64,000 nucleotides of DNA from Eledone cirrhosa. Its lineage: Eukaryota. Location: positions 30,256,001-30,320,000 of the forward strand of contig OZ024748.1 of assembly GCA_964016885.1 (NCBI GenBank). Direction: 5' to 3'. The position numbers were made by a program, and so were the translations under genes. Below the pieces are notes generated by a model. The model was not told the DNA's origin, made no database searches, and saw only the letters and a program-made list of their open reading frames with translations. This document shows, one piece after another, positions 14,804 through 62,515 of this stretch; position 1 is the stretch's first letter, and each line of letters starts with the position of its first letter.

Positions 14804-15654
14804 TATGTGTGTAAGTGTGTGTTTGACTGTCTGTGTTTATTTTCTATAACTTAGAAATTTGACAAAAACAGATCGATAAATTAAGTACCAGACTTTTAAA
14901 AAAATAAATATGAAAGGGGAAGGGGTTGTTTACTTGAGTGAAAGTAATAGAAGATGCATTTTAGAGGGGGAGGAGTGAGAACAAATCCAAGCATAACAAA
15001 TATATAATGGGGGTGCGTGGTTGTAGCCAACTAGAGTGAATGTAGTAAGAGTAAAATGACGGGTTAGAGTACAAGTTAGATTAGCTTACGAGTTGTTAAA
15101 TGTGTCAACAGCAGTTTTATCATTTAGGTCAGTAACAAAGAGCAGTGGATTTTTTTAACAGTGGACGACACCACACCGAAAAAGCATAGTATGTAAGTAT
15201 AAATGATACTTATTACATATTACACTAAGCAAATTATAAAAAAAAATATTTTGGTGATAGGGATGGGTGGCATCCCATCCCTATCTCACTTGAGAGGAAA
15301 ATGAAAAAGGAGTGAATGTAGCGAGAGAGCCATAGTGAATGGGCCTGTACCTGTATGATGGAGAGAATACAAGAGAGTGGGGAGATATGTTTGTATGGTG
15401 GAGAGAATAGAAGTGAGAGGGGTCGTGGCCTATAATGCCCCTAGTAATTGGAGTGACCTCAGATCAGTGGGGATTGGAATTCTTTAATTACTCTTGGACG
15501 GTGCCCCCAATTTATTGTGACTTTGTTACCTATTTTTTCTCTTTCCTCATTTTATGTAACACTACCTCACTGTCCCTGTTTTTGGCCTCAGTGGCCAATT
15601 TTATTATTTGTTGTACCTCCTCATCCACTTTGTTTCCTCATAAATTTCTCCACG

Positions 15655-16522
15655 CTTTCATTACCATATTTCTAATGAAAGACACTACCTATATTTAACT
15701 CTTTCGTTACCATATTTCTAATGAAAGACACTACCTATATTTAACTCTTTCGTTACCATATTTCTAATGAAAGACACTACCTATATTTAACTCTTTCATT
15801 ACCATATTTCTAATGAAAGACACTACCTATATTTAACTCTTTCGTTACCATATTTCTAATGAAAGACACTACCTATATTTAACTCTTTCGTTACCATATT
15901 TCTAATGAAAGACACTACCTATATTTAACTCTTTCGTTACCATATTTCTAATGAAAGACACTACCTATATTTAACTCTTTCGTTACCATATTTCTAATGA
16001 AAGACACTACCTATATTTAACTCTTTCGTTACCATATTTCTAATGAAAGACACTACCTATATTTAACTCTTTCGTTACCATATTTCTAATGAAAGACACT
16101 ACCTATATTTAACTCTTTCGTTACCATATTTCTAATGAAAGACACTACCTATATTTAACTCTTTCGTTACCATATTTCTAATGAAAGACACTACCTATAT
16201 TTAACTCTTTCGTTACCATATTTCTAATGAAAGACACTACCTATATTTAACTCTTTCGTTACCATATTTCTAATGAAAGACACTACCTATATTTAACTCT
16301 TTCGTTACCATATTTCTAATGAAAGACACTACCTATATTTAACTCTTTCATTACCATATTTCTAATGAAAGACACTACCTATATTTAACTCTTTCGTTAC
16401 CATATTTCTAATGAAAGACACTACCTATATTTAACTCTTTCATTACCATATTTCTAATGAAAGACACTACCTATATTTAACTCTTTCGTTACCATATTTC
16501 TAATGAAAGATACTGCCTATGT
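15655..16522. repeat. 46-bp tandem satellite, about 19 near-identical copies
   Basis: Unit TTAACTCTTTC(G/A)TTACCATATTTCTAATGAAAGACACTACCTATAT; no unique spacers. Confidence 0.95.
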
Positions 16523-16617
16523 TTATAGCGATTTTTTTTGTTGGTTGGGTTGGTGAGTTGATTGTGTTGTGGTGTTAATGCATTTGTTGCATGTGTGCTC
16601 ACTTGTCGCTTGCTGTG

Positions 16618-16765
16618 TCGTGTGGTCACTGTTGTGTGATACTGTGACCAGAGGTTGCATGTGTGGTGTGGTCACTGTTGTGTGACACAGTGTGACCAGA
16701 GGTTGCATGTGTGGTGTGGTCACTGTTGTGTGTGATACAGTGTGACCAGAGGTTGCATGTGTGTA
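16618..16765. repeat. ~42-bp minisatellite, about 3.5 copies
   Basis: GTGTGGTCACTGTTGTGTGA(T/C)AC..GTGACCAGAGGTTGCATGT. Confidence 0.85.
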
Positions 16766-19160: not shown

Positions 19161-19215
19161 CATACATACACACACATTCATATATATATATATACGTACA
19201 TATATGTATATTGAG

Positions 19216-19322
19216 AGTTTAAGACTGGCTGTCCATGGGAACTTCTATATGCAGATGATCTAACTCTCATAGCTGAATCTATGGCAGAACTATAGAAGAA
19301 ATTCCAAACCTGGAAGCATGGC
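19216..19322 (+). mobile_element. RTE fragment, left part (interrupted by viral insert)
   Basis: EFKTGCPWELLYADDLTLIAES...KFQTWKHG; continues at 26941. Confidence 0.9.
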
Positions 19323-19364
19323 AGCTTCCACTGGCAGTGACTACAGTGGGCATGGTTTACTTGT

Positions 19365-20828
19365 TTACAAAGTGGCCTGATAAGTAGGCAAGTGGGCGTT
19401 TTCTATCTTCACAATGGTGGAATGTTCGACCGGTTTTTCTATTTTTGGCGGCATTGTTACTGAGAATTGATTGTAATTTCACTCTTTGGCTTCGTAGCTG
19501 CATTCAATTTCAACGAAATAGGTTAAGTCAAATGTAAAGTATATTTGAGGCCTGGTGTTGTTGGGTCGAACCACGACTGGTACGTTAATGAGACACATTT
19601 CTTGTGGTTCTTCTGGTGTGTATAATACTTTGTTAATTACTGTTCTGTTTGCTACCATGAAGTCACCCGATGCCTGTACGTTTATGCCTTCTACTGTGTG
19701 TGTGTTTTGGTGGTCGAATGTAATGTCTGAATGTTCGGTATAATATATATCTTCCTGGGTAGGTTCTCTGGCTCTTTGTCTCGTCTCCATGAACCCTTCA
19801 TTTCGTTCTGTAGTATGCGATCCTACATACGGTGCTGTACCAGTCTCTAGGCAGCCATCCCATGTCATGTCTAGGTTAACGTTTCTTTCCAGGTTGAATG
19901 CGTCGCCTCTTGTATTAGTTAAGCCTGTTACTGTATAGTTTTGGTCCTTGTCTTAATTTTTTTTTCGATCGCATATCTCTCCAGTCGTGTAATTGATGAA
20001 TAAATAGTTGACTTTTTAAAGTTGTTGCTGTTATCGGCTTATCAGAAAATTGGTTAATCAATGGTATTGGCGCGCAATATATAAATTTATATGTAGGCAG
20101 TTCTAGTTCTGCGAAAGTTGTTGGTTGTGTGAGCTGTAAACCATTGTTCGGTAGTTTTGATATTGTTTTTAAATTACCGTGTCCGATATATTTACCAGTA
20201 TCAACGTAGATTTCGAAATACGGTGTTGGTGAATCTATAAAGATTTCCTCGTTGTTTCTCGTTTGGAACTTGCCACATATGATATCATCAATTTTGAAAC
20301 CTTGTTTGGCTACTCTGTACGATGTAGCCATTTGCGTCATGGCCTCCCATTATGTCGGTTTAATCCATGATGTCATCCAGTATGGTACGATATAATCTTT
20401 TGATTCAACTACACCTTTAGCGTAATGTCCTATATTGTGGTAAGATTTTTCCCCTGTAGATGGGAATTTTTCGAATGATACTTTCGCTTCATTCATGTTA
20501 GTTGTTTTTACAACGTTTCTGAACGTTCTCGATATTGTCTATTTTCGTCTAAAGTTTCCCGAGTCGTCTTGGAATCCTGAAGATTGGATGTTTTGTGTTG
20601 AATGACTTGGCTGAGGGTTTGCTTCGCTTTGGCCGCCTTCGTTCAAATCTGCCATCTTTTTATTAGGTAGAGGATTAGGAAACAAAGCATGATAATTATC
20701 TGGATGGGCTGGTCTGAAGATTTGATCGAGTCCAAAATTGTGTTTAGTGTAGATAGCTCCTGCTGATATAATTCCGAACGGGCCTTGGTGTATTGCTCCG
20801 TCGATAAACTGTTTGTCTGCCTCCCAAG
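19365..20828 (-). pseudogene. Endogenous parvovirus/densovirus-like VP capsid gene, 3' part
   Basis: Continues the PLA2 frame: TWEADKQFIDGAIHQGPFGIISAGAIYTK...KKMADLN...DYIVPYWMTSWIKPT*WEAMTQMATSYRVAKQGFKIDDI...YFTFDLTYFVEIEC; three internal stops and one frameshift near 19950. Confidence 0.8.
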
Positions 20829-20832
20829 TATC

Positions 20833-21315
20833 TGTGGTAATGAAGAATCCTTGTTGGATAGTTTATCAATATAGACGTGAGGGAAAGTCCCTCGTCTATT
20901 TACCATTTTCGTAAGTGAGAGGATAGGTACTCCATAGAATTATGTAAACAACAATGTAAATAAGGATGATGTTTATTTTGTCTATTATGTGCTGGTTATA
21001 TTACAAATGAAACAACATACCAATATAGACGTGATCAGTTGAAATGAAGGCAACGTATTACAATTGTCGTGGGTCACCAATGTAACGGGACCACGTCTGG
21101 GTCACCAGTAGGGTAATGAAGAATCCTTGTGGCTTCGGCATAGGAGTTCAGTGTATTGACATCTGTGTGATCTCGTTGTCCAAAGGCCGTTTGTTGTCTC
21201 CGTGGCTTGTCTGAGAAAGTAATACTGCTGCTTACTTAAATAGTGTTCTCAACCAGGGGGAGACAACTAGGCCTGGTCCATTATCCGATAGGGGGGCGTA
21301 AGGCGTCTTACTACA
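20833..21315 (-). repeat. 3' LTR
   Basis: About 10 substitutions and one ~50-bp indel relative to 26126-26659. Confidence 0.95.
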
Positions 21316-21535
21316 GTATCCCCTGCCAGATTTTCAAATCATCGAAAATCGATGTTATTACTCACACGTGGAGTAAGATGGCGAACAATGCAACAAGGGG
21401 GAGCTATTCGCTCTACCAATCGTTAAATCCAGAATAAGGATTTGAAAAATGTTAAAAAAACATGCATGCATAAAAAAAAAGGCAAAAAAAAAAGCAGAAA
21501 CACAGAAGCAAAAAAAAAGGTGCAGCTAACACAGT

Positions 21536-24500
21536 CTAAATATAGACGGTGCTGCAACATTTTTTGGGCCAGTGGACCCTACGACCTGAACGGGTCGTGG
21601 TCTTGTAACGTGGCGATGGTGGTCGTGTAGGGACAGGCGATGATAGTGGTTCAGGAACAGGCGTTCGCTCAACAGGCAAATACGAAGGGGTTCGTGGATC
21701 AGGAACCACAGCGTCCGTGTCCAGATGTGCCTGCTTAAGCCTGTCTATTGTAACTGTCTCCCTGGACCCGTTAATATCTAGAGTGAAATGCTTAGCCGAG
21801 CGCGCTAAGACACGGTAAGGTCCAGTGTAAGGCTGTGTGAGCGGGGGCTTCACAGAATCTTTCCTTACAAAGACATGCGTCCACGAGGCAACATCTCTCG
21901 GGACAGCAGTCTTGACAGTTTGTTTCCTAGTGTCTATTGGCGGCAAATCCTGGAAATAGGAGCGCAAATGGGACACGTAGGAAGCGTGATCTTGGGCATC
22001 AAGATCGATAGGGGCAAGCATTTGCCCGGGCAACGTCAGAGGAGCACCGTACAGTACTTCAGCCGGTGAAAATCCAAAGTCGACCTTCACTAATAGCACA
22101 ATAGGGAGGTACTCGCTCCAACGCGCCGAGTCCATTGAGGCCATTAAGGAGGCCTTCAGTTGTCGGTGAAAACGCTCCACCATACCATTCGAAGCGGGAT
22201 GGTACGCCATAGTTCTGATGCGTTTAGCACCAATTAATTTTGACAGTTCGAGGAAAAAGCTCGACTCGAACTGTCGTCCACGGACGGTAGTTACTGTGGA
22301 TGGAACTCCATAACGAGAGATCCATCCAGACACAAGAGCACGCGCTGTTGTCTCAGCGGTGATGTTTTTCAAGGGGATGGCTTCAGGCCATCTCGAAAAA
22401 CGGTCAACTATAGTAAGCAGATAAGAATAACCGTCGCTGACAGGCCAAGGTCCCACTATATCAATGTGAATGTGCAAAAAACGCGCATCTGGGTTAGTAA
22501 AGGTACCCAGGGGAGCCTTGACGTGTCGATGGACCTTTGATTTCTGGCAAGCGACGCAGGAACGGCACCAAGCAACAATTTACTGCCTCATATTTGGCCA
22601 GAAAAATCTAGCTGATATGAGGTTTACTGTGGCAGAAGATCCTGGATGTGAGAAACTATGTAATGCCAGAAACACGGTCCGACGATGATTCTCTGGAACG
22701 AAGGGCCTAGGCACGTCCAAAGAGACGTCGCAGAGAATTTGGCCAACTGCAGTCGACAGAGGCAAGTATTTCATCTCGTAATTCGCAAACTCAGGCGATA
22801 TAACATCCAATGACTCAAAGGGAGGCTGATCCGCAGCCAAACGAGTCAGATCTATGTCAGAGGGTGACGAGATCGCTGTCATGGGTAAGCGGGACAAAGC
22901 ATCGGCCGCTGTATTCAGTGAACCCGGAATGTGTTGGATATCGTTCGTATATTGCGAGATGAAATCAAGGTGCCACGTCTCTCTGGGCGAGTATTTATCA
23001 GCCTTCGCTCTCAACGCAAAAGTTAATGGTTTATGGTCAGTGAGGATAGTAAATAGTCTACCCTCTAGCATATGTGAAAAATGTTTCACGGCTAAATAGA
23101 TGGCTAAAAGCTCCCTTCCAAAGGTGCTGTAGCGCGTCTCAGCAGGTTTCATTTTTCTGGAAAAAAACTCGAGCGGTTGCTGGTAACCATTGATGTTTTA
23201 TTGTAGCACTGCGCCCACAGCGATATCCGATGCATCAACACAAAGCGTTAGCTTTGCACCGGGTACCGGGTGAGCCAGTAAAGAAGCATTAACCAAAGCA
23301 GTTTTGGCGTGCTGAAAATCAGCAAGTTGAGTCTCGGTTAAAGAAATGTCTGTATTCTTCTTCCGACAATTTTTTTAAATTTTCGTCAGGGAGAAAAGCA
23401 ATCTTGCACAATTTGGCACGAAACGCCTATAAAAATTAATCAGGCCAAAGAACTGGCGTAACTGACGTAGTGAGGTCGGTGGAGGCAAATCCTCTATGAC
23501 CTTAACTCGCTCAGGCCGGGGTCGAATACCGTCAGCATCGATGACGTGACCCAAGAAAGTCAGTGACTCAGCACCAAAAACACATTTGGGTGCATTAATC
23601 TGCACGTTATACGCCTTCAATCGGCGGAAAAGAAGATTTAAATGGTGCGTATGTTGTTCTTGAGAAGAACTAGCAATGAGCAGGTCGTCAATATATGTAT
23701 AGACGAAATCGAGGCCACGAGTAACCTCACCCATAAACCGCTGAAACGTACTAGCGGCATTCCTTAATTCGAACGGCATGGTCAAAATCTCAAATGACCC
23801 AAATGGCGTAACTATAGCCGTTTTTGGAATGTCATTTTTATGGACAGGAATTTGATGGTACGCACGAATTAAATCTAGTTTGGAGAATACCTTGCATCCC
23901 TGCAACGAAGACGCAAAGTCTTGCAGATGAGGGATAGGATAACGGTCCGGTTCCGTTATTGAATTTAAGCGTCGATAATCTCCAGTAGGTCTCCAATCGC
24001 CAGTCGCTTTCGGTACCATGTGTAATGGGGACGCCCACGGGCTCGTGGACGGACGAATAATTCCCAACTGCAGCATATGATCAAACTCTGATCGTGCTGC
24101 TTTGAGTTTGTCCGGAGGCAAGCGACGAGGACGAGAAAAAACGGGAGCACCAGTTGTAGTTATGAAGTGCTCCGTGGTATGAGTTGGCTCATCAACTCGA
24201 AAATTTCCCTGAGTCAGTTGCGGGAACGAGTTCAACAACGCATGGTAAGTATCGCCGGTGTTAGCAAGAAAAAAGGTCGGGCTAACCGTTGGAACTCCTG
24301 CTGCCTTGCCAACAACAGTTAAACCAGTGATGTCATCAATTAGGCGTTTACGACGGAGGTCCACCGTCAATGAAAAATGGTGGAGAAAATCCGCGCCTAG
24401 AATCGGATACGGCAAGGCAGCGACAGTAAAAATCCATTTAAACTCACGCCGCAGATTACAGAACTGCAAAGGTAGCGAGATTTGTCCGAAAGTTCGAATC

Positions 24501-24715
24501 GGCGAACAATTTACTGCCTGCAACTCAATAGGTGACTCAGGGGGAGTCTCCTTCATACAACAAACAGGCCATATTGAACAAACTGCACCTGTGTCAACCA
24601 GAAAGGCTCTACCTGATAGCAGGTCCTCAATGAAAAAGTGGCGGTTGGATGATGTTTCGCAGAGCGCACTATCCGCCGTTAGTGACTCTGGTCGTCGTTT
24701 CCCTCGTAAGCACAA
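21536..24715 (-). pseudogene. Gypsy pol (PR, RT, RNase H, IN), disrupted
   Basis: FLVDTGA; LDLIRAYHQ; YIDD; FGRELLAIY; HIDIVGP; NGMVERFHR; PYTGPY; stops and frameshifts. Confidence 0.9.
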
Positions 24716-25459
24716 GGAGGCCTACAACGGGCGGCTTTGTCACCATATTTGTCATGGTAATAACAATATGGTGGATTTGAAGATTTGGAAAGGCTACGGT
24801 GGCGAGGAGTAGAATAAGATCGTGAGCGGCTCCTCTGCCGTCCAAAAGACCTGAGTTCCTGGCACAACTCCGCCATTTGACGAGTCATGGCTTCCATTGT
24901 TTTGACCAACTTCTCATCACTCGCTGATGAGCGTGATTGAGGAAGAGAAGAGGAAGCAACGTACTTTTGCTTCGAAGTGTCTCTCTTCGTCACTTCTACT
25001 ATTTTGTCGGCAGAGACAGCAATGTGGTCGAGTGTGTTTAACTCTAGCATATGGGCTAGGATCGCCTGTACCTCTTGAGGTAGGCGAGAGAAGAACAATT
25101 GCTTCAGGAAAGGGCTATCCTGATCTTGGGAATCACTCAATTCCCGCAAATGCCGGAGAAAAGCGGTAGGGGTTCTGTCAACTAGTCGTTCGTCCTAGAT
25201 CAATGACCGAAAACGACTCTCTACCGATTTACAGTTCCTTCTCAAGATCTCGCCTTTTAAAGAATCATACGTTAAGTCAGAGGGGGGGGGGGTCTGTAAT
25301 TAGGTCTTGGACCGAATCTGCTAAATTAGGGAGAAGTCCGCTAATCAAGACAGCGAGGCGCTGGTCAGACTCGGTCTTACAGACCGTAAAATACGCCTGT
25401 AGCTGGGCGAACCACAGCTTAGGGTTTCCGGTAAAGGCGGGCAAATGTGGCGTATTCAT
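24679..25459 (-). pseudogene. Gypsy gag, frameshifted
   Basis: LPAFTGNPKLWFAQLQAYF...FFSRLP...[18 protein letters not shown] (CHCC motif). Confidence 0.85.
24697..24703 (-). promoter_or_regulatory. Putative -1 frameshift slippery site G GGA AAC
   Basis: XXXYYYZ in the gag frame, pol in the -1 frame, downstream stem AGAGTCACTA/TAGTGCGCTCT. Confidence 0.7.
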
Positions 25460-26111
25460 TGTGAAACGAAAAAAAAAAATAGAAACAGCAATTAATGTTC
25501 CCTCGTACAGGGAAAAGTAAACACCCAAAATGGAAAAAAAAAAATCAAAAGTCAAAAAGAAACAGACATTCAAAACATTAGGAAATAGCAAAAATACATA
25601 AAGTACATATATATATTTTTTTTTAAAAATGTTTTCCTTCAACGTCTGTCCCCTTGTGTTGCTTCAACGGGCAAGCCAAATCATATAACCCGAAAAAAAG
25701 AGAAAAAAAAAAAATGTTTGTTTTAGAATATATCCACGTTGGATATCAACAATAGGTAGCCTGTGGTTAAAAATCCCTTAGAAAAAAAAAAGTAAGGTAT
25801 GTGTATCCACTGCGGGGCAGTAATGGTCACAAAAACAGTTTTTCTCTTGATCAAATATGGAACACACACAAGCAATTCAAAATGTCCCTGTCCTGGCGGG
25901 AAAATTGCAAAACGTAGAAGAAAAGCAACGCCATATTGGAAAAATTTTTGGCTGGTTTTTTGTATACTTTGTCAATACTGTATAAACACATTATTATTTC
26001 TCTGTCTTTTTTTTTTTGTGTATTTTTGTAAGTTGCGAAAAGGTTGGCAACGTGGTAATAACAGTGAAATATTTAAGTTCAAATGAATAAAAGGCTGCGT
26101 AAAATTCTTTA

Positions 26112-26124
26112 GTCGGGGTTACCA
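26112..26124 (-). promoter_or_regulatory. Primer-binding site, tRNA-Trp type
   Basis: TGGTAACCCCGAC, one mismatch to TGGTGACCCCGAC. Confidence 0.8.
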
Positions 26125-26125
26125 G

Positions 26126-26659
26126 TGTGGTAATGAAGAATCCTTGTTGGATAGTTTATCAATATAGACGTGGGGGAAAGTCCCTCGTCTATTTACCATT
26201 TTCGTAAGTGAGAGGATAGGTACTCCATAGAATTATAACAAGTGAGTGTGTGTGTGTGTAGACAAGATAATAACCACAACGAGAGTTCTATTCAACAATG
26301 TAAATAAGGATGATGTTTATTTTGTCTATTATGTGCTGGTTATATTACAAATGAAACAACATACCAATATAGACGTGATCAGTTGAAATGAAGGCAACGT
26401 ATTACAATTGTCATGGGTCACCAATATAACGGGACCACGTCTGGGTTACCAGTAGGGTAATGAAGAATCCTTGTGGCTTCGGCATAGGAGTTCAGTGTAT
26501 TGACATCTGTGTGATCTCGTTGTCCAAAGGCTGTTTGCTGTCTCCGTGGTTTGTCTGAGAAAGTAATACTGCTGCTTACTTAAATAGTGTTCTCAACCAG
26601 GGGGAGACAACTAGGCCTGGTCCATTATCCGACAGGGTGGCGTAAGGCATCTTACTACA
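26126..26659 (-). repeat. 5' LTR
   Basis: Paired with 20833-21315. Confidence 0.95.
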
Positions 26660-26858
26660 TATCCTTATAAGGGTCGGTGTAGTGGAGGTCATGGACTTTC
26701 GCTAGTCTATCAAGTTCGTTTAGAGGTTCTTCTTCTAACTTACTTAATATATGCGTTCCGGGACACAGAAATTTGTAGCCTGGTGGATGTAATTCGAATG
26801 TTGATTCTTTTAGTGTATCAGCTGCGCTCTTTTTCTTGGCACCTCTTATCGGTGGCAT
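26660..26858 (-). pseudogene. Endogenous parvoviral VP1-unique region (PLA2 N-terminal half)
   Basis: HPPGYKFLCPGT...EPLNELDRLAKVHDLHY matches the parvoviral PLA2 pattern PGYKYLGPGN...P.N.LD.AA..HD..Y. Confidence 0.85.
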
Positions 26859-26869
26859 GTGAATATTTC

Positions 26870-26905
26870 AAATGACACTGTCAATGGTTTACATCGATAT
26901 TTATA
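26870..26905 (-). promoter_or_regulatory. Putative viral VP promoter (TATAAAT + Inr TCATTT)
   Basis: TATA at 26905-26899, TCAKTY initiator about 30 nt downstream, ATG 12 nt further. Confidence 0.55.
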
Positions 26906-26940
26906 ACGGGGCACCTCTTACTTCCATCGCAAGCGCTTTC

Positions 26941-27458
26941 GAATCAAAAGACCTTAAAGTTAACTTGTCTAAGACTAAAGTTCTAGTATGTAGAAAGGAA
27001 AATAGGGCACAGGTGCCCTCTGGGGAATGGCCATACTCAGTGTGTAAGAAGGGAGTAGGTAGATAATCCGTTGTATGTCCTAAATGCAAACTATGGGTAC
27101 ATAAAAGATGTAGTGGGTTCACAGGCAAGCTATCAAAGAATGTAGATTTTATTCTCAGTTGCAATAAGTAGCAGGTGCCCAGTGGATACTAGCTCCTTCC
27201 ATTGCCCAGATGGTTCTATAGAAATAGTAGACACGTTCCGTTACCTGGGTGACAAAATCAACAGTGGAGGAAGGTGTTCTGAGAGTACAGCAGCCAGAGT
27301 AAGAACGGGGTGGAAGAAGTTCAGAGAGCTAATACCACAGTTGGCCACAAAAGGTTTCTCTCTAAAAATGAAAGGCAGATTATATGATGTATACGAAATG
27401 TTACATGGTAGTGAGACCTGGGCAGTGCGTGCAGAGGATCTGCACAGATTGGAAAGAA
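26941..27458 (+). mobile_element. RTE fragment, right part
   Basis: ESKDLKVNLSKTKVL... directly continues KFQTWKHG(L) at 19322. Confidence 0.9.
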
Positions 27459-27467
27459 TATATATAT

Positions 27468-27945
27468 ATATTATTGAGTAAAATGACAGGAGGTCGGACT
27501 GGTGAAATTCCTTCAAAGATTTATTTCAGCAAACACTATGTACATTTCAGTGGCCAGGTTACAGAGAAATATGTAACCTGATCTCCTTTACCACTAGCAT
27601 GTGTCTAAATAGCAGGGTAGTAGTAATAGGCATACAACCCCCTGACCAAATCGGTAAGATAAAATTGATCAGAATCCTCACTCGAAGGTGGTCAGCCAAA
27701 CTAACAACAATTGGCCCTCTTGATCGCCTTTGAGTCAAAAAAATGTTTCTGTTTTTTTATATCCGTATAGCCTCTTGGATTGTGTTTACCATAATTCCTT
27801 TATTATATAACTATTATGCAATAAACACCTGATGATGTCACCAGGATATTACGTTACCTGGCCACTGAAATGTACATAGAATTTGTTGAAATAAATCTTT
27901 AAAGGAATTTTACCAGTCCAGCCTCCTGTCATTTTACTCAATAAT
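27468..27945. repeat. ~93-bp inverted repeat (Penelope-type terminal repeat) with hammerhead at 27823-27884
   Basis: 27468-27560 is the reverse complement of 27853-27945; AAACAC-CUGAUGA...GAAA-UGUACA-UA. Confidence 0.75.
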
Positions 27946-28093
27946 AATTAACTCCATTCTCGCACCACCAACACGATTCAACATCAAAGCTGGATGAGTT
28001 GCATAATGTTGAGTGTTTTTCCTAATATTACATCATGGTTGGCTATACAGAATGACCAGTTCTATCCAGTGGTGAACCACCAAACTTAAATGA

Positions 28094-35992: not shown

Positions 35993-36335
35993 ATCATCAT
36001 CATCATCATTTCATTTTACGTCCGCTTTTTCCCTGCTTGCAAGGGTGTGACGGGAACTGATTCTGGCTTGATTTCTACAGCCGGATGCCCTTCCTAACAC
36101 CAACCTCATTTACAGTGAGTGCTGGGTGCTTTTTTGCCGTGGCACCTACACGTCCACTTTACAGTGAAATGATAGGGACCCCAGTCCCTATCATCTCATT
36201 TCTACAGCTGAGTAAACTGGAGCAATGTGAAATAAAGTGTCTTGCTCAAGGAAACAACACATCACCTGGTCTGAGAATTGAACTCACAATCTTTCGATTG
36301 CAAGGCCAATGCTCTAACCACTAAGCCATGTGCCT

Positions 36336-36338
<3 letters not shown>
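35993..36338 (-). mobile_element. Full-length CORE-SINE with RTE tail
   Basis: Reverse complement of the copy at 45198. Confidence 0.9.
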
Positions 36339-36393
<55 letters not shown>

Positions 36394-36394
36394 C

Positions 36395-39160
36395 CCCCTC
36401 CCCCCCCATGAAGAATGCACCTCCCAACATAGACTGATAATTAGCGACCTCATAGTCAGGACGAGACGTACTCGACAGCAGAAGAGGACTATCCTCAGGA
36501 AAAAAATATGGAAGCTAAAGGACCCCACAGCCAGGAATAAATTTCAAAGCATATTACTTGATGCTTTCAACAGTAAGGAAGAACATGTAGAGTCGGACAA
36601 TATAGAGGGAGAGTGGGAATTTCTGAAAGCAAACCTGCTGTTGGCGACAGACAAAGTCTGTGGCTGGAGCAGGCCTGTAGGCAGGAGGAGAGTAACATGG
36701 TGGTGGAACAGTAAGGTGGAGGGGTCAATTAAGGCCAAAAAGCAGGCTTGGAAAGTATGGCGGGATGGGGGAAGTAGAGAAGACTATCAAGTGGCCAGGA
36801 GGGAAGCTAGGAGACAAGTGTACTTAGCAAGAAGGGAAGCTGAGGAAAGAAAGTTCAAGCATGTTCTACAACGCGATGACCAAAAACGTGAGGTGTTCAG
36901 GATTGCTAGGCAATGCGTCAAGGAAAACCGTGATATTGTCGGGGAGAAGTGTGTACTTAATGATGATGGCATACTTGCCATCACTGACGCTGATAAGAAG
37001 GTAGCTTGGAAGTGTCACTATGAAAGGCTACTAAATGAGGAGAATAAATGGGAGAAAGACAGTCTCCCCCATATCGACCCAATAGAGGGACCAGCAGTGT
37101 TAGTCGAGGGGAGTATAATAAGTAAGGCAATCAAGGATATGAAGACGGGTAAGGCGGCTGGGCCTTCGGAAATAGTTGCTGAGATGCTGAAGGCATCTGG
37201 CACGGTGGGACACACCATGGTCACCCGCATAGTTAACCAAGTTGTACAGAATGGGGTTGTTCCGAAGGACTGGCATAGCAGCATCATCGTTAACTGTTAT
37301 AAGGGTAAAGGAGACGCCCTAGATAGGAGTAACTATAGAGGCATTAAATTAATCGACCAGGTCATGAAGGTCACGGAAAAAGTAATAGCACAACTAATCA
37401 GAGAGAGAATCGACCTAGATGAAATGCAGTTTGGGTTTGTGTCAGGCAAAAGTACCACAGACGCTCTTTTCATTGTACGACAACTACAGGAGAAGTACCT
37501 AGCTAAAGGTAAACCCCTCTACTTAGCTTTTGTCGACTTGGAGAAAGCCTTCGACAGAGTCCCCCGCTCCATTATCTGGTGGGCTCTTAGAAAACTAGGC
37601 GTTGACGAATGGATTGTGAGAGCTATACAAGCCATGTATAAAGAAACAGTCAGCAAGGTTAGAATTAACAACGAATATAGTGAAGAGTTTAGCGTAAAAG
37701 TTGGCGTCCATCAGGGCTCTGTTCTCAGCCCCCTACTATTTATTATTGCCCTTCAGGCTATAACAGAGGAGTTCAAGACCGGCTGCCCATGGGAACTCCT
37801 ATACGCAGACGACCTGACACTCATAGCGGAATCAATGGCCGAGCTAGAGAAGAAATTTCAAACATGGAAGCACGGCCTAGAATCAAAAGGCCTTAAAATT
37901 AACCTGGCTAAGACTAAAGTTCTAGTTTGTAGGAAAGAAAATAAGGCGGCGGTCCCTTCTGGGAAATGGTCGTGCTCGGTGTGTAGGAAAGGCGTAGGTA
38001 GAAACTCCATTTTATGTCCTAAATGCAAAGTATGGGTGCATAAAAGATGTAGTGGGATCACAGGTAAGCTAACTAAGAACATAGATTTTACATGTGGCCG
38101 GTGCTCTAGTGCAATAAGTAGCAGCAAGTGCCCACAAAATACTAGCTCTTTCAATTGCGCAGAGGGTTCTATAGAAATAGTGGACAGTTTCCGTTACCTG
38201 GGTGATAAAATCAGCAGTGGGGGAGGGTGCTCTGAAAGTACAGTAGCTAGAGTCAGAACTGGTTGGAAAAAGTTCAGAGAGCTTATACCACTATTAGCTG
38301 CTAAAGGGTTCTCCCTAAAAATGAAAGGCAGGTTGTACGATGCCTGCATACGAACAGCAATGTTGCATGGCAGTGAGACCTGGGCATTGTGTGCAGAGGA
38401 TATACGCAGACTAGAGAGGAACGAAGCTTGCATGCTCCACTGGATGTGTAACAGTAATATACGTGAACGGCAAAGCATAAACGAACTAAGGAAAAAATTA
38501 GAAATAAGAGGGATCAGATGTTGTTTACTCGAGAGAAGGCTACGTTGGTATGGACACGTGATGCGCATGAAAGTCGATAGCTGTATAACAAAGTGCAGGG
38601 CAATAAAGATAGACGGTAGCCACGGAATAGGCAGACCTAGAAAAACCTGGGACGAGCTGATAAACTCCGACCTCACACACTTATACCTCTCCAAGACAAT
38701 GTCACTGGACCGAGACCTTTGGCGGTACTCAGTAACAGAGAAGACCCGCCTTACCTAAATACATAGTAAAACCTACTACAGCCAGTAGGCATCTAACAAA
38801 ATACCCCCCCCCCCCCCCCCCCCGTCCCACCACCCCCAACCCATTCCACGCCACCCCGTTCTATGTAAAGTTGTGTTGGTGCCACACCATCCAGGCCGAA
38901 AGAAATGAGATCGTGTAGGTGTCATGACAAAAAAACACACAGTCCACGCTGTAATGTGGCCGTGTAGGCAACACGGTAAAAACCTCCCAGACCCACACTG
39001 TAAATGTGGTTGGTGTTAGGAAGGGCATCCAACTGTAGAAAACCTGCCAGACAGTCCTATGCGAGCAAGACAATCACTCTTGCCTCAAGTGGGACTACCC
39101 CCGTCCAAACCCATGCAAGCGTGGAACACGGACGTTAAACGGTGATGATGATGATGATGA

Positions 39161-39163
<3 letters not shown>
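36395..39163 (+). mobile_element. Young 5'-truncated RTE LINE, uninterrupted frame to 38758
   Basis: About 785 codons open from the APE end through RT and PHD-like finger; flanked by (TA)n; (ATG)n tail. Confidence 0.95.
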
Positions 39164-39215
<52 letters not shown>

Positions 39216-39381
39216 TATTCTTATATATACAAACATTTTTACACACACGCATACATTCACACACACACACATACTTTCAGACAAACATGCACAAACATTC
39301 ACAGAAACACACATATACACTCACACAGAGCATAGTTTTTCAACATCCCCTTCCTCCCTCTTATGCACCCATACATTCACA

Positions 39382-58631: not shown

Positions 58632-61508
58632 TCAAGGATCAATTTCCCCCTCGTCCCTCTGCATATGAAAGTCTGCCGTCCAGGTCGGTGGTCTACGACT
58701 TTGTTGCGATCTTCGTAGTATTGGGGCAGAGCTCTGGGTTTCCACCTCATCTTGGGTTTCCTCTTCCTCGGAGTCCGTCGACACAGTGATTCTTCTTACA
58801 TCCAGGACATGACGTGGTACCCCGTCCACGGACACATTGTTCTTTGAATTTACGGCCGTCACCGTTCCCCTTCCCCATTGAGATGTGCAACGTGCATCTG
58901 GGGGTTTAACCCAGACTTCTTCGCCCACCTGCACGAATGCACTCTCTCTCCCCACTGGCCGTTGTGGTGGCGTGCACGGGTGCCGCCACTCGTATTTGAA
59001 TACTGCTCTATGTGGCACCGATTCCTCGACCTGTCCAACCCGAGGGGACATATTGTACCAGAAGACTGCCTCCATTGGTGAGATATGGCCCCGCTCCGCC
59101 ATTGCCTTGATCGTCCGGTGGTGTCGCTCCACGATTCCATTCCCGCTCGGCCTGTGCGCCGCTCTGAAGAAACGGTCCACCTTCCATCCATCGAGCATCT
59201 CCCTCAGTGCCTCCGAGCGGAACGCTGCGCTGTTGTCCATCAGCAGTTCATCCACAGGGCCCCGCTCCAAGAACACCTCTCTCAACGTCCGCACGATTTC
59301 CTCGGCCGTTCCAGTCTTCATCTCCCTCCATATCACCATTCGACCTGGTCCACAGTCGACCATCGAGAGGTACGTTCCCTGCCGATAGTACGTCACATCC
59401 ACCGCTAATCGCTTCCAGTCGCGATCCACCGGGAGGCTTCCCGTTTCGTGTACACCCGGGGCGGGATCAATGGACTGACATCGGACGCAGCCTCTAACCA
59501 CCCCCCGAACACTGTGTCTGCTAACGTCCGAGTCGATTCTCTTGGCTAGGAACAGGCTCCTATCCACCCCCATGTGGTGCATGTCATGCAACCCCTTCAG
59601 GTCTAACTCGGTCAGCCGACACACGGCAGCTATCTCATCCTCTACCTCCTCCAGCGCTTCCATCCAGGCTTTCTTCACTCTAGTTAAGATGTCCACCCTA
59701 TTTTTCTCTGAGGGCACGAACACTACCCTCAGCTTCAGGTCGAACTCGGTGGCCAGCTCTCCTAACGTTCCCAGGCGGCGCTTTATCAGCATCTCCGCCG
59801 CGCCTCTCGTTCGCACTCTCTTCTCACTGGTGAGCACTGATCTTACCCATCCGAGTACAGTAGCCGAGTCGGTGCATATCTCGATGGTGCGCAGCCCCCA
59901 CCGCAGGGTGGGGTTCACCCCTCTCAACACCGCGTCCAGCTCGGCCACATTGATGTGGCTGCAGTCGTCCTTCTTTCTAAGCCAGGCTGCATCCTCGACC
60001 TCAACACCTATCTCCAACGGTGACACCCAGCGCTATGCTGCTGGCATCGCACCATACGGTCCCACTCCGTGATTTGGGAACGTACCAGCGTCCCCGCACT
60101 GGGTCGTCGGCCTTCACCCTCCCCACGATCTCCTGCATCATGGCCACCGTTCTCTCTCCTGCTCTGTCACTCCAAGTCACCCCTCCCGCTCGTCTCTTGA
60201 CATAGCTGCATGCCGTCCGGAGCCACCCAGCGATTGGGTAGTGACCCACCAGCTTTCCACACACCGAGAAAAGCTCCCGCCTATTCATACTTGGGCCCAG
60301 TTCCGGAACTTCGTTTCCCCTCTGGAACACCAAAACGCCCGTCTTATCTCGCCGTAGCCAAAGTCCCAGCGCGGCTCCTCCCTCCAATGCTTCTGATGGC
60401 TTCGCAGTCAGTCCATACCTCCGCAAATGGCTCGTGACCTCCGCCGTCGACAGCACCGACTCGTCCACTAGGATGTCGTCAATATAGGAGTTAGTAGCCC
60501 TCTTTATCTTGTCGGCCCTCCCCAGAGCAGTCTTGAGGACCGCCACCATGATCTTCGGTGTGGAGCTCAGCCCGAAACCGAGCCTGGTCAGGCAATATGT
60601 CCGGCCCTTATACCTGACCAGCTGATACCGCCAGAGCTTCTCATCTATATGCAACTGCAAGTAAGCCGACTTTAGATCCACGATCGCTGAACCCCCCGTC
60701 ATGCGTCTCCACTCACGCAGGGTTTCCCCACAGACATCCGTGACCTCGCCACCCGTGTGGCATGACACGTGCTCGTTCAGCTCTCGATAGTCCAGCACCG
60801 GCCTCACCTTGCCCTTCGTGGGTTGCACCACCGCCATCAACGGCAATACTCCGCACTTCACCTCCTCCTTCCAGGGAAGCAGTATGCCCTCTTCGATCCA
60901 TCTCTCTACTTCTCGCTCGAACTCGCTCCTAGCGTTTCCCTTCAATGTGTGTTGATAGCAGCCCACTTTAGTCTTCAGTGTTGGTGGTTCTCCCTTCCAG
61001 TACCACTCAACAACCCATCGCTGCCCATCAAACACGGCCTTGAAGTCTTTGTCCTGTACAGTGTAAGCGGGGTATTCCTCCTCGTGGGCCTTCTGGTTCT
61101 CATGACGTGCACTCACAGCACATACTGATGCAGCGGCGACAAACGACACACCGACATTGTTCACCGTGACGCCCCCTAGACGGCCAATCGCGTCCATGCC
61201 CATAACCACACCGATCCCATCCACCACACTGTCTACCACGATGGCGGAAAGCCTTATCGTCCTTCCCCGTACCGCTATTTCCATCTCGCTGCGACCTCGG
61301 CATTCCTGCCGTCGACTGCCCTTACGCTGCTCTTCCCTCCCCACCTCTGCGCCACCCCCGCGGTCACCAGTGTCGTCGTACAGCCCGTATCCACGAGGGC
61401 TCGCTGTGGCTTCCCCCTCACGAAGACTTCCACCACGGGCAGCGCCGCTACTCGTAAGGGGCAACTACCGGCGCAGTAGTTCCCCTTGGATCGTTTTCCT
61501 GGTCGCAT
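58632..61508 (-). pseudogene. pol (PR-RT-RH-IN) of the LTR element, with frameshifts
   Basis: ORFs 61275-61508, 60001-61464 and 58632-60026. Confidence 0.85.
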
Positions 61509-62195
61509 TTAGTAGCGATGTGGCCTGGTCGCTTACACCGGTAGCAAATTATCTCCGGCTTCGACTCTCTACAGTCTCTAGCCATATGCGGGCCCTGGCA
61601 CCTAAAACAGCGCCCCCTAAATTCGTCCCGAGGTTGCCTCCCTTTGACCATTTCGCTGCCAGGTGTCCTGAGCCTCCGTAGTCGCTATCGCCGCAACACT
61701 CTTTTTGGCATCTTCCGCTATGATCCGGGCTTGTTCCACCAGTGAACGCATTTCCATCTCTTTATAACCCGGGACTTGCTGCAGTTTCACCGCTATGTCG
61801 TCCGGAAATCCATTGATGAACGGCAACCGCACCGTGCGTTCGCATTCCGCCTGGTAACCGGCCAACATAGCCAACCGCCTTATTTCCGCTGCGAAAATGT
61901 CGACGCGCTCACCATTCCACCTGATTCTCGCCAGCTTAGCAAAAGCCGCCAACGGTCCCTCGGCGAATGCATCCATCAGACGCCTCTCAATCTTCTGCAC
62001 ATCTCTTTGGCTGTGCTCGTCCAACTCAAGGAAGAGTACCAGCGCGTCGCCCTCGAGGTACAATGCCATGAAACCGGCCACGTCTTCTATCTTCTGCAAG
62101 CCTGCGACCAGCCGAACCTTCCGCGGCAAAGTGACAACATCACCTTCCCCGGTGAATGGCCTGATAGCTTCGTTCATCCGTAGTCTTGTCGCCAT
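61448..62195 (-). pseudogene. gag with two zinc knuckles, one frameshift
   Basis: CFRCQGPHMARDC and CYRCKRPGHIATKC. Confidence 0.85.
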
Positions 62196-62247
62196 CTTCT
62201 GATTTGTTTTGCGGCAAGTGTTTTCTTTTTTTTTTTTTTTTTCAGTC

Positions 62248-62259
62248 GCCGAAATAGCT
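62248..62259 (-). promoter_or_regulatory. Atypical PBS complementary to tRNA-Phe nt 1-12
   Basis: Element sense AGCTATTTCGGC abuts the 5' LTR; complement GCCGAAATAGCT is the 5' end of metazoan tRNA-Phe(GAA) as recalled. Confidence 0.7.
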
Positions 62260-62515
62260 TGTGGTTAGAAAAAGCTATCTCACTTACCGCTTTTCACAGG
62301 CGCCGCTAAATTCCACTGCAGGTACTCCTCTTCCACGTGCGTCCGACTGCTTAACACCGGGAGCTGCCCAAAACTCGCGTCCACACCGTGTGCTGGTCAC
62401 CACTAGAGAGAGGCCTTCTCCTGGCCCTTCCGGTCGAGCATCCTTCCGGCCAAAGACCACTTCCGGTCGAGCACTCCCCCCGCCTCCGGCCACCGCACGC
62501 CACACCATACCCACA

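Follow-up and report, generated by a model that had tools for sequence, protein, structure and literature searches.

The locus described here raises the question of how a viral gene, itself interrupted by a Gypsy LTR retrotransposon, came to lie inside a LINE, and in what order the three elements were brought together. It is located in a stretch of 64,000 nt of the Eledone cirrhosa genome (GCA_964016885.1, contig OZ024748.1, positions 30,256,001 to 30,320,000), hereafter called the window, to which coordinates refer unless another region is named. A sequence-only reading had proposed a three-level nesting (RTE LINE, viral gene, Gypsy), ascribed either to end-joining capture of viral DNA or to template switching during LINE reverse transcription. 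The nesting is real: one RTE subfamily lies on both sides, the gap between the flanks amounts to 3 nt, the Gypsy is bordered by a 4-nt duplication, and three viral paralogs run on without a break where it was inserted. As for the route, we consider it quite probable that a capsid gene, together with its promoter and the remnant of a likely terminal hairpin, was captured in one RTE copy, likely by end joining at a DNA break, and that the Gypsy was inserted later. Positions of the features are given in Table 1.

Table 1. Features of the nested locus in window coordinates, and viral loci with the capsid gene upstream of NS1.
Feature	Position	Strand	Remarks
RTE LINE, left flank	19215..19322	+	RT region; starts after TA-rich tract
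Viral insert, 3' part	19323..20832	-	remaining capsid frame to stop at 19359-19357, plus 34 nt; stops and frameshifts
Gypsy target-site duplication, left copy	20829..20832	+	TATC
Gypsy 3' LTR	20833..21315	-	TG...CA; without 51 nt present in 5' LTR
Likely polypurine tract of Gypsy	21316..21328	-	read off the sequence
Gypsy gag (DUF7041) and pol	21536..25663	-	domains run RT, RNase H, integrase; pol has in-frame stops
Likely primer-binding site of Gypsy	26109..26125	-	TGG start; read off the sequence
Gypsy 5' LTR	26126..26659	-	11 mismatches in 483 columns against 3' LTR; K2P 0.023
Gypsy target-site duplication, right copy	26660..26663	+	TATC
Viral insert, 5' part	26660..26940	-	PLA2 domain (first half); ATG at 26858 as likely start; sequence upstream of it
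TATAAAT, likely capsid promoter box	26899..26905	-	predicted function
Inner-arm remnant (31 nt) of likely terminal hairpin	26910..26940	-	carries conserved AGAGGTGCC motif
RTE LINE, right flank	26941..27456	+	stops at TA tract, where another high-copy repeat starts
Capsid-first loci, lineage of the insert (n = 9)	C1, C2, C3, C7, C12, C18, C19, C25, C841		
Capsid-first loci, second lineage (n = 8)	C2, C10, C12 (twice), C14, C25 (twice), C998		

The host copy, which we take, in line with the sequence-only reading, to belong to the RTE clade, is only an internal fragment of 624 nt, with TA-rich tracts and other high-copy repeats beyond both ends. Its interruption had been placed between 19322 and 26941, and these coordinates are right: the flanks are colinear with the reverse transcriptase (RT) region of a second RTE copy in the window (37769-38418). 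This copy had served as the reference for the intact sequence; it is colinear as supposed, but it belongs to another subfamily and is 84% identical. As a sample of the host's own family, 58 RTE loci were fetched, i.e. the best 29 genomic matches for each flank, and both sides were present in 57 of them. The spacer between the two breakpoints measures 3 nt in 55 of these 57 copies and mostly reads CTA, so that the approximately 3 nt reported as missing are exactly 3 nt.

Both RTE flanks are of one subfamily, and the concern that they might derive from two is not borne out. At sites diagnostic against the 37.8-kb subfamily, the family state is found in 10 of 11 positions of the left flank, which is short (108 nt), and in 48 of 55 of the right flank. 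These sites were used instead of the correlation between left and right flank identities (rho -0.20), which is uninformative due to selection bias. The right flank shows 42 differences in 516 positions from the majority of left-picked copies and 46 in 516 from that of right-picked copies. Unbiased divergence is 7/108 for the left and 42/516 for the right flank, i.e. not different (p 0.70). RTE sequences account for 20% of the window, and candidates in the genome number in the thousands. Genome searches with the outer flanks returned dispersed repeats only; neither a duplicate of the site nor an empty one turned up.

Several further repeats were noted in the window. RTE copies often start or finish in TA microsatellites (781-2260 and 39129-39229, as well as L022 3116-3448), which suggests a target preference. 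A long RTE frame spans 36275-38758, with a PHD-finger match inside its RT region (5e-05, just under the cut-off). The high-copy element starting at the end of the RTE fragment is opened by a 94-nt inverted repeat (27469-27946). Also found were a tandem array of a 46-nt unit with copies ~99% identical (15514-16641) and, on the minus strand at 58632-62264, a GC-rich retroelement with RT, DUF7047 and RNase H-like (RVT_3) matches and a weak integrase match.

On the minus strand, the viral insert reads from 26940 to 19323; excluding the Gypsy, it comprises ~1.8 kb, namely a whole parvovirus-type capsid frame and 82 nt upstream of it. The N-terminal PLA2 domain was recognized above the cut-off (PF08398, 8.5e-08), and the window capsid piece gave weak matches to parvovirus VP1 chains. 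NS1 is absent and the capsid frame is decayed by stops and frameshifts; the locus is likely an inert fossil. Three nucleotides after the capsid stop, an ATG opens a short frame that is cut by the junction (19323-19353, minus strand); the C18 viral copy has ACG at this place.

A full HMMER search yielded 138 homologues of the capsid, one of them, from Octopus vulgaris, 49% identical. Neither the capsid piece of the window nor one from a paralog retrieved homologues from a word-indexed library, PDB sequence searches with pieces of the capsid body were empty, and the Atlas gave no usable match for the capsid piece. The fold was approached through a 608-aa homologue, P0001 (40% identical), whose predicted structure has a mean pLDDT of 62. 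P0001, like P0015 and P0048, is encoded on a contig of 4.5-5 kb. All matches listed for this model were parvovirus capsids (E 5e-10 in the PDB, 5e-16 in BFVD), with a TM score of only ~0.3; sequence identity to parvovirus capsids, whether their structures were solved or predicted, was only 10-16%. A parvovirus fold is thus predicted for the capsid from the homologue, not from the window copy. Beside paralogous capsid genes lies NS1 with an SF3 helicase (PF01057, Parvo_NS1, 1.2e-16); the 15 NS1 homologues found are all unnamed, and no NS1 relatives were found in viral contigs. An origin of the PLA2 domain from an Adintovirus was dropped, since the domain is fused to a capsid of parvovirus fold beside NS1. 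With the Parvoviridae plan these elements share the PLA2 capsid and parvovirus fold, the Parvo_NS1 SF3 helicase, terminal hairpins and a unit of ~3.9 kb. The element is parvovirus-like in its workings, but we do not assign it to a described genus.

Parvovirus-related sequences of molluscs that branch outside known genera have been reported among endogenous parvoviral elements (passages of PMC5013282 and PMC6232428). As in the window insert, the capsids treated in these passages have a PLA2 motif at the N-terminus and are degraded, with stops, frameshifts and inserted transposons; the insert differs from them in that its LINE family gives the pre-insertion sequence, so that each junction between host and virus can be placed to the base. 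The word "octopus" is absent from the main text of PMC5013282, whose mollusc elements are listed in supplements, and a narrow word search of the literature found no paper on an octopus parvoviral element.

In the genome (3.0 Gb searched), 64 NS1 matches and 18 DNA matches to the insert, including the insert itself, were detected. Five viral copies were compared, and their pairwise dN/dS of 0.14-0.27 indicates that they are separate integrations, none of the other four being the donor of the window insert. The same values reject a single ancestral insertion that was afterwards duplicated. Parvovirus-like elements of both lineages occur in tandem clusters (G000:C2:345363000-345382999, L019-L020; C12:9066000-9085499, L028 and L158), which could be small-RNA clusters. 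RTE cover is 0.6% in the virus-centred regions, compared with 20% in the window.

As described before, the RTE-virus junctions carry neither a target duplication nor poly(A) on either side, and capsid frame and RTE run in opposite directions. None of the hallmarks of LINE-mediated insertion (sense copy of a transcript, poly(A), target duplication) was found. On the left, virus and RTE meet 34 nt beyond the capsid stop; the C18 viral copy reads TGCC at this junction and the RTE reads TGGC, and 1-4 nt of microhomology may be present. At the right junction there is no microhomology; past this point, further viral sequence follows in the C3 and C4 copies. C3 retains a whole hairpin with a 43-bp stem, in whose inner arm, 12 nt from the loop, the window insert begins. 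Hairpins upstream of the capsid gene are also present in the C19 and C2b copies (stems of 43, 38 and 21 bp in this lineage, lineage 1), and the C4, C12 and C2 copies start in or beside this hairpin. The motif AGAGGTGCC accompanies the hairpins in 8 of the 9 copies inspected. Because hairpins recur upstream of the capsid and the motif beside them is conserved, the right junction is likely an end of the viral genome. The insert extends ~35 nt upstream of the TATAAAT box and is, for this reason, derived from DNA.

The junction in the window copy is single-copy in the assembly. Further RTE-virus junctions, which the sequence-only reading had suggested looking for, did not turn up: none of 74 viral block ends, taken from 20 other regions, has an RTE within 300 nt. 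These 74 ends are coding ends and not true junctions, several come from one cluster, and the 20 regions compare with 64 genomic NS1 matches. As no block end lies near an RTE while RTE makes up a fifth of the window, the LINE was likely a passive, large target.

The Gypsy shows nothing unusual. With Ty3/Gypsy LTR retrotransposons it shares paired LTRs with TG...CA ends, the order RT-RNase H-integrase and the 4-nt target duplication. Its family is common, with 693 LTR candidates in the genome, and 4-nt duplications also flank two other copies. In the C18 viral copy, the capsid is truncated and borders on a different Gypsy-like fragment (L023 7387-8215), which is ~70% identical to the Gypsy of the window. 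In the viral copies C2, C3 and C4 the sequence is uninterrupted across the Gypsy site and carries a single TATC; since three viral paralogs have empty sites, the Gypsy was inserted last.

The claim that the nesting fixes the relative order of all events is correct for the Gypsy; otherwise, all that follows from the nesting by itself is that the virus is not older than the RTE. Divergence of the LTR pair corresponds to ~0.012 per LTR. Nonsynonymous divergence, in both cases an upper bound, was 0.054 (0.035-0.078) for the RTE flanks against the family majority and 0.020-0.040 for the window branch of the virus, and 20 of the 49 differences in the RTE flanks are common to at least six family copies and therefore predate the insertion. 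RTE and virus differed in decay with C4 as sister (Fisher p 0.005) but not with C18 (p 0.43). This weak signal leans towards an RTE older than the virus. An order of RTE, virus and Gypsy fits the data, with only the Gypsy step proven.

A course of events consistent with these observations would comprise five steps: (i) a truncated RTE copy, seen to be of a single subfamily on both sides, would already have been present at the site; (ii) in a virus-infected germ cell, this copy would have suffered a break; (iii) the viral genome would have been opened in the hairpin of one end and joined there to one RTE side, in agreement with the anatomy of the right junction, and by its other end, presumably trimmed to just beyond the capsid stop, to the opposite side with loss of 3 host nt; (iv) the insert, which has no NS1, would then have decayed, leaving the stops and frameshifts seen in the capsid; and (v) the Gypsy would have entered the PLA2-coding stretch, producing its 4-nt duplication. 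The start in the hairpin stem upstream of the TATA box, the loss of 3 host nt without duplication and the finding that no other examined viral copy adjoins an RTE support the end-joining proposal of the sequence-only reading. Microhomology-mediated joining is also possible, because of the short microhomology that the left junction may carry.

Captures of AAV DNA at breaks look much the same. When AAV enters Cas9 breaks, one ITR with partial cargo is the commonest class (9 of 20 clones), host losses are small and microhomology is occasional, according to passages of PMC6769011. The captures reported there share with the window insert a single hairpin-derived end, partial viral cargo, a small host loss and optional microhomology. 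They concern vectors, engineered cuts and mammalian cells, whereas the insert is a natural germline fossil of an invertebrate in which the break is deduced.

The best surviving alternative, which we nevertheless regard as improbable, is a double template switch. Template jumping is known for some non-LTR reverse transcriptases, and the RTE enzyme might have jumped during target-primed reverse transcription from its RNA to viral single-stranded DNA and back, so that LINE and virus arrived together. The polarity agrees with this, as copying would enter the insert from the hairpin end, and so does the lack of a significant decay difference when C18 is the sister. LINE1-associated circovirus elements have been reported in carnivores (passages of PMC11089739). 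These elements, like the Teratorn-type virus-transposon fusions mentioned there, resemble the locus in that viral sequence is joined to a transposon, but they were amplified as units, unlike the single junction seen here. The proposal of template switching found no support in our data. Viral mRNA is excluded as the template by the antisense orientation of the insert and by the inclusion of sequence upstream of the TATA box, and a switch to viral DNA needs two jumps, the second landing within 3 nt of the point at which the RNA was left. Moreover, a free end would be expected in the outer arm and the loop of the hairpin, both of which are missing, and no second RTE-virus junction was found.

Somewhat less probable still is an origin within the genome, in which another endogenous viral copy, and not an infecting virus, served as the template copied into the break. 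Related elements are indeed numerous, as the genomic NS1 and DNA matches show, and the possible microhomology at the left junction would suit such copying. On the other hand, the nearest copies are ~10% divergent, with dN/dS of 0.17-0.24 against the window copy, which implies divergence as viruses, and the insert is not accompanied by host DNA that would have flanked a donor copy. An assembly chimera, or two unrelated RTE fragments meeting by chance around the virus, could appeal to the abundance of RTE and to the shortness of the host fragment but has very little probability, given flanks colinear in register within 3 nt, one sub-lineage on both sides, viral and Gypsy junctions exact against paralogs, and a mis-join not being expected to restore the LINE register. 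End joining at a break thus remains the preferred account of the locus.

The relatives of the insert differ from known parvoviruses in gene order. In monosense parvovirus genomes, the NS gene usually lies upstream of VP between terminal hairpins. By contrast, 17 loci of the genome (counted from tables) have both genes on one strand with the capsid gene upstream of NS1; they fall into two lineages (Table 1), and NS1 of the second lineage is ~27% identical to that of the insert's lineage. Pieces of NS1 precede pieces of the capsid at three loci (L106, L111 and L114), which are scrambled or tandem clusters.

In L157 (lineage 2), one 18-nt motif is found inverted at both ends of a ~3.9-kb unit. 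The sequence folds back on itself downstream of NS1 in L157 and upstream of the capsid in L159, and viral units are present as inverted duplications of 99.5-100% identity (L159 459-3587, L160 2665-8026 and L157 3580-5003). Such fold-back units look like very recent integrations of rolling-hairpin dimers, or may be palindromic assembly artefacts. Between capsid and NS1, the longest stems measure 6-9 bp in all four loci folded, against 21-43 bp upstream of the capsid. Head-to-tail concatemers of ordinary NS-VP genomes are disfavoured as the cause of the capsid-first order, since the gap between capsid and NS1 has no strong hairpin in these four loci. A narrow word search of the literature found no capsid-first parvoviruses. 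Liu et al. 2011 reportedly covers flatworm densovirus-like elements.

We tentatively suggest, without putting it at even odds, that these elements represent an undescribed parvovirus-like group, likely of octopuses, with a linear genome of the order hairpin-capsid-NS1-hairpin, the reverse of the usual one. Such a group would comprise at least two deep lineages and have entered the germline dozens of times, in some cases very recently as fold-back dimers; the window insert would be its fossil, recording the capture of one genome end to the base.

How single-stranded DNA viruses get into germlines is usually a matter of guesswork, since the site as it was before insertion no longer exists; at this locus it can be read from thousands of LINE copies. 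The junctions resemble those of AAV captured at breaks and provide a clean example but no new mechanism. The nesting is therefore an ordinary, though well-resolved, capture event, and it is the gene order of the virus that is less ordinary and carries the novelty. The capsid-first order matters more than the nesting and is a lead worth following: unless described before, it would represent a genome plan new to parvovirus-like viruses, implying a different control of early and late genes.
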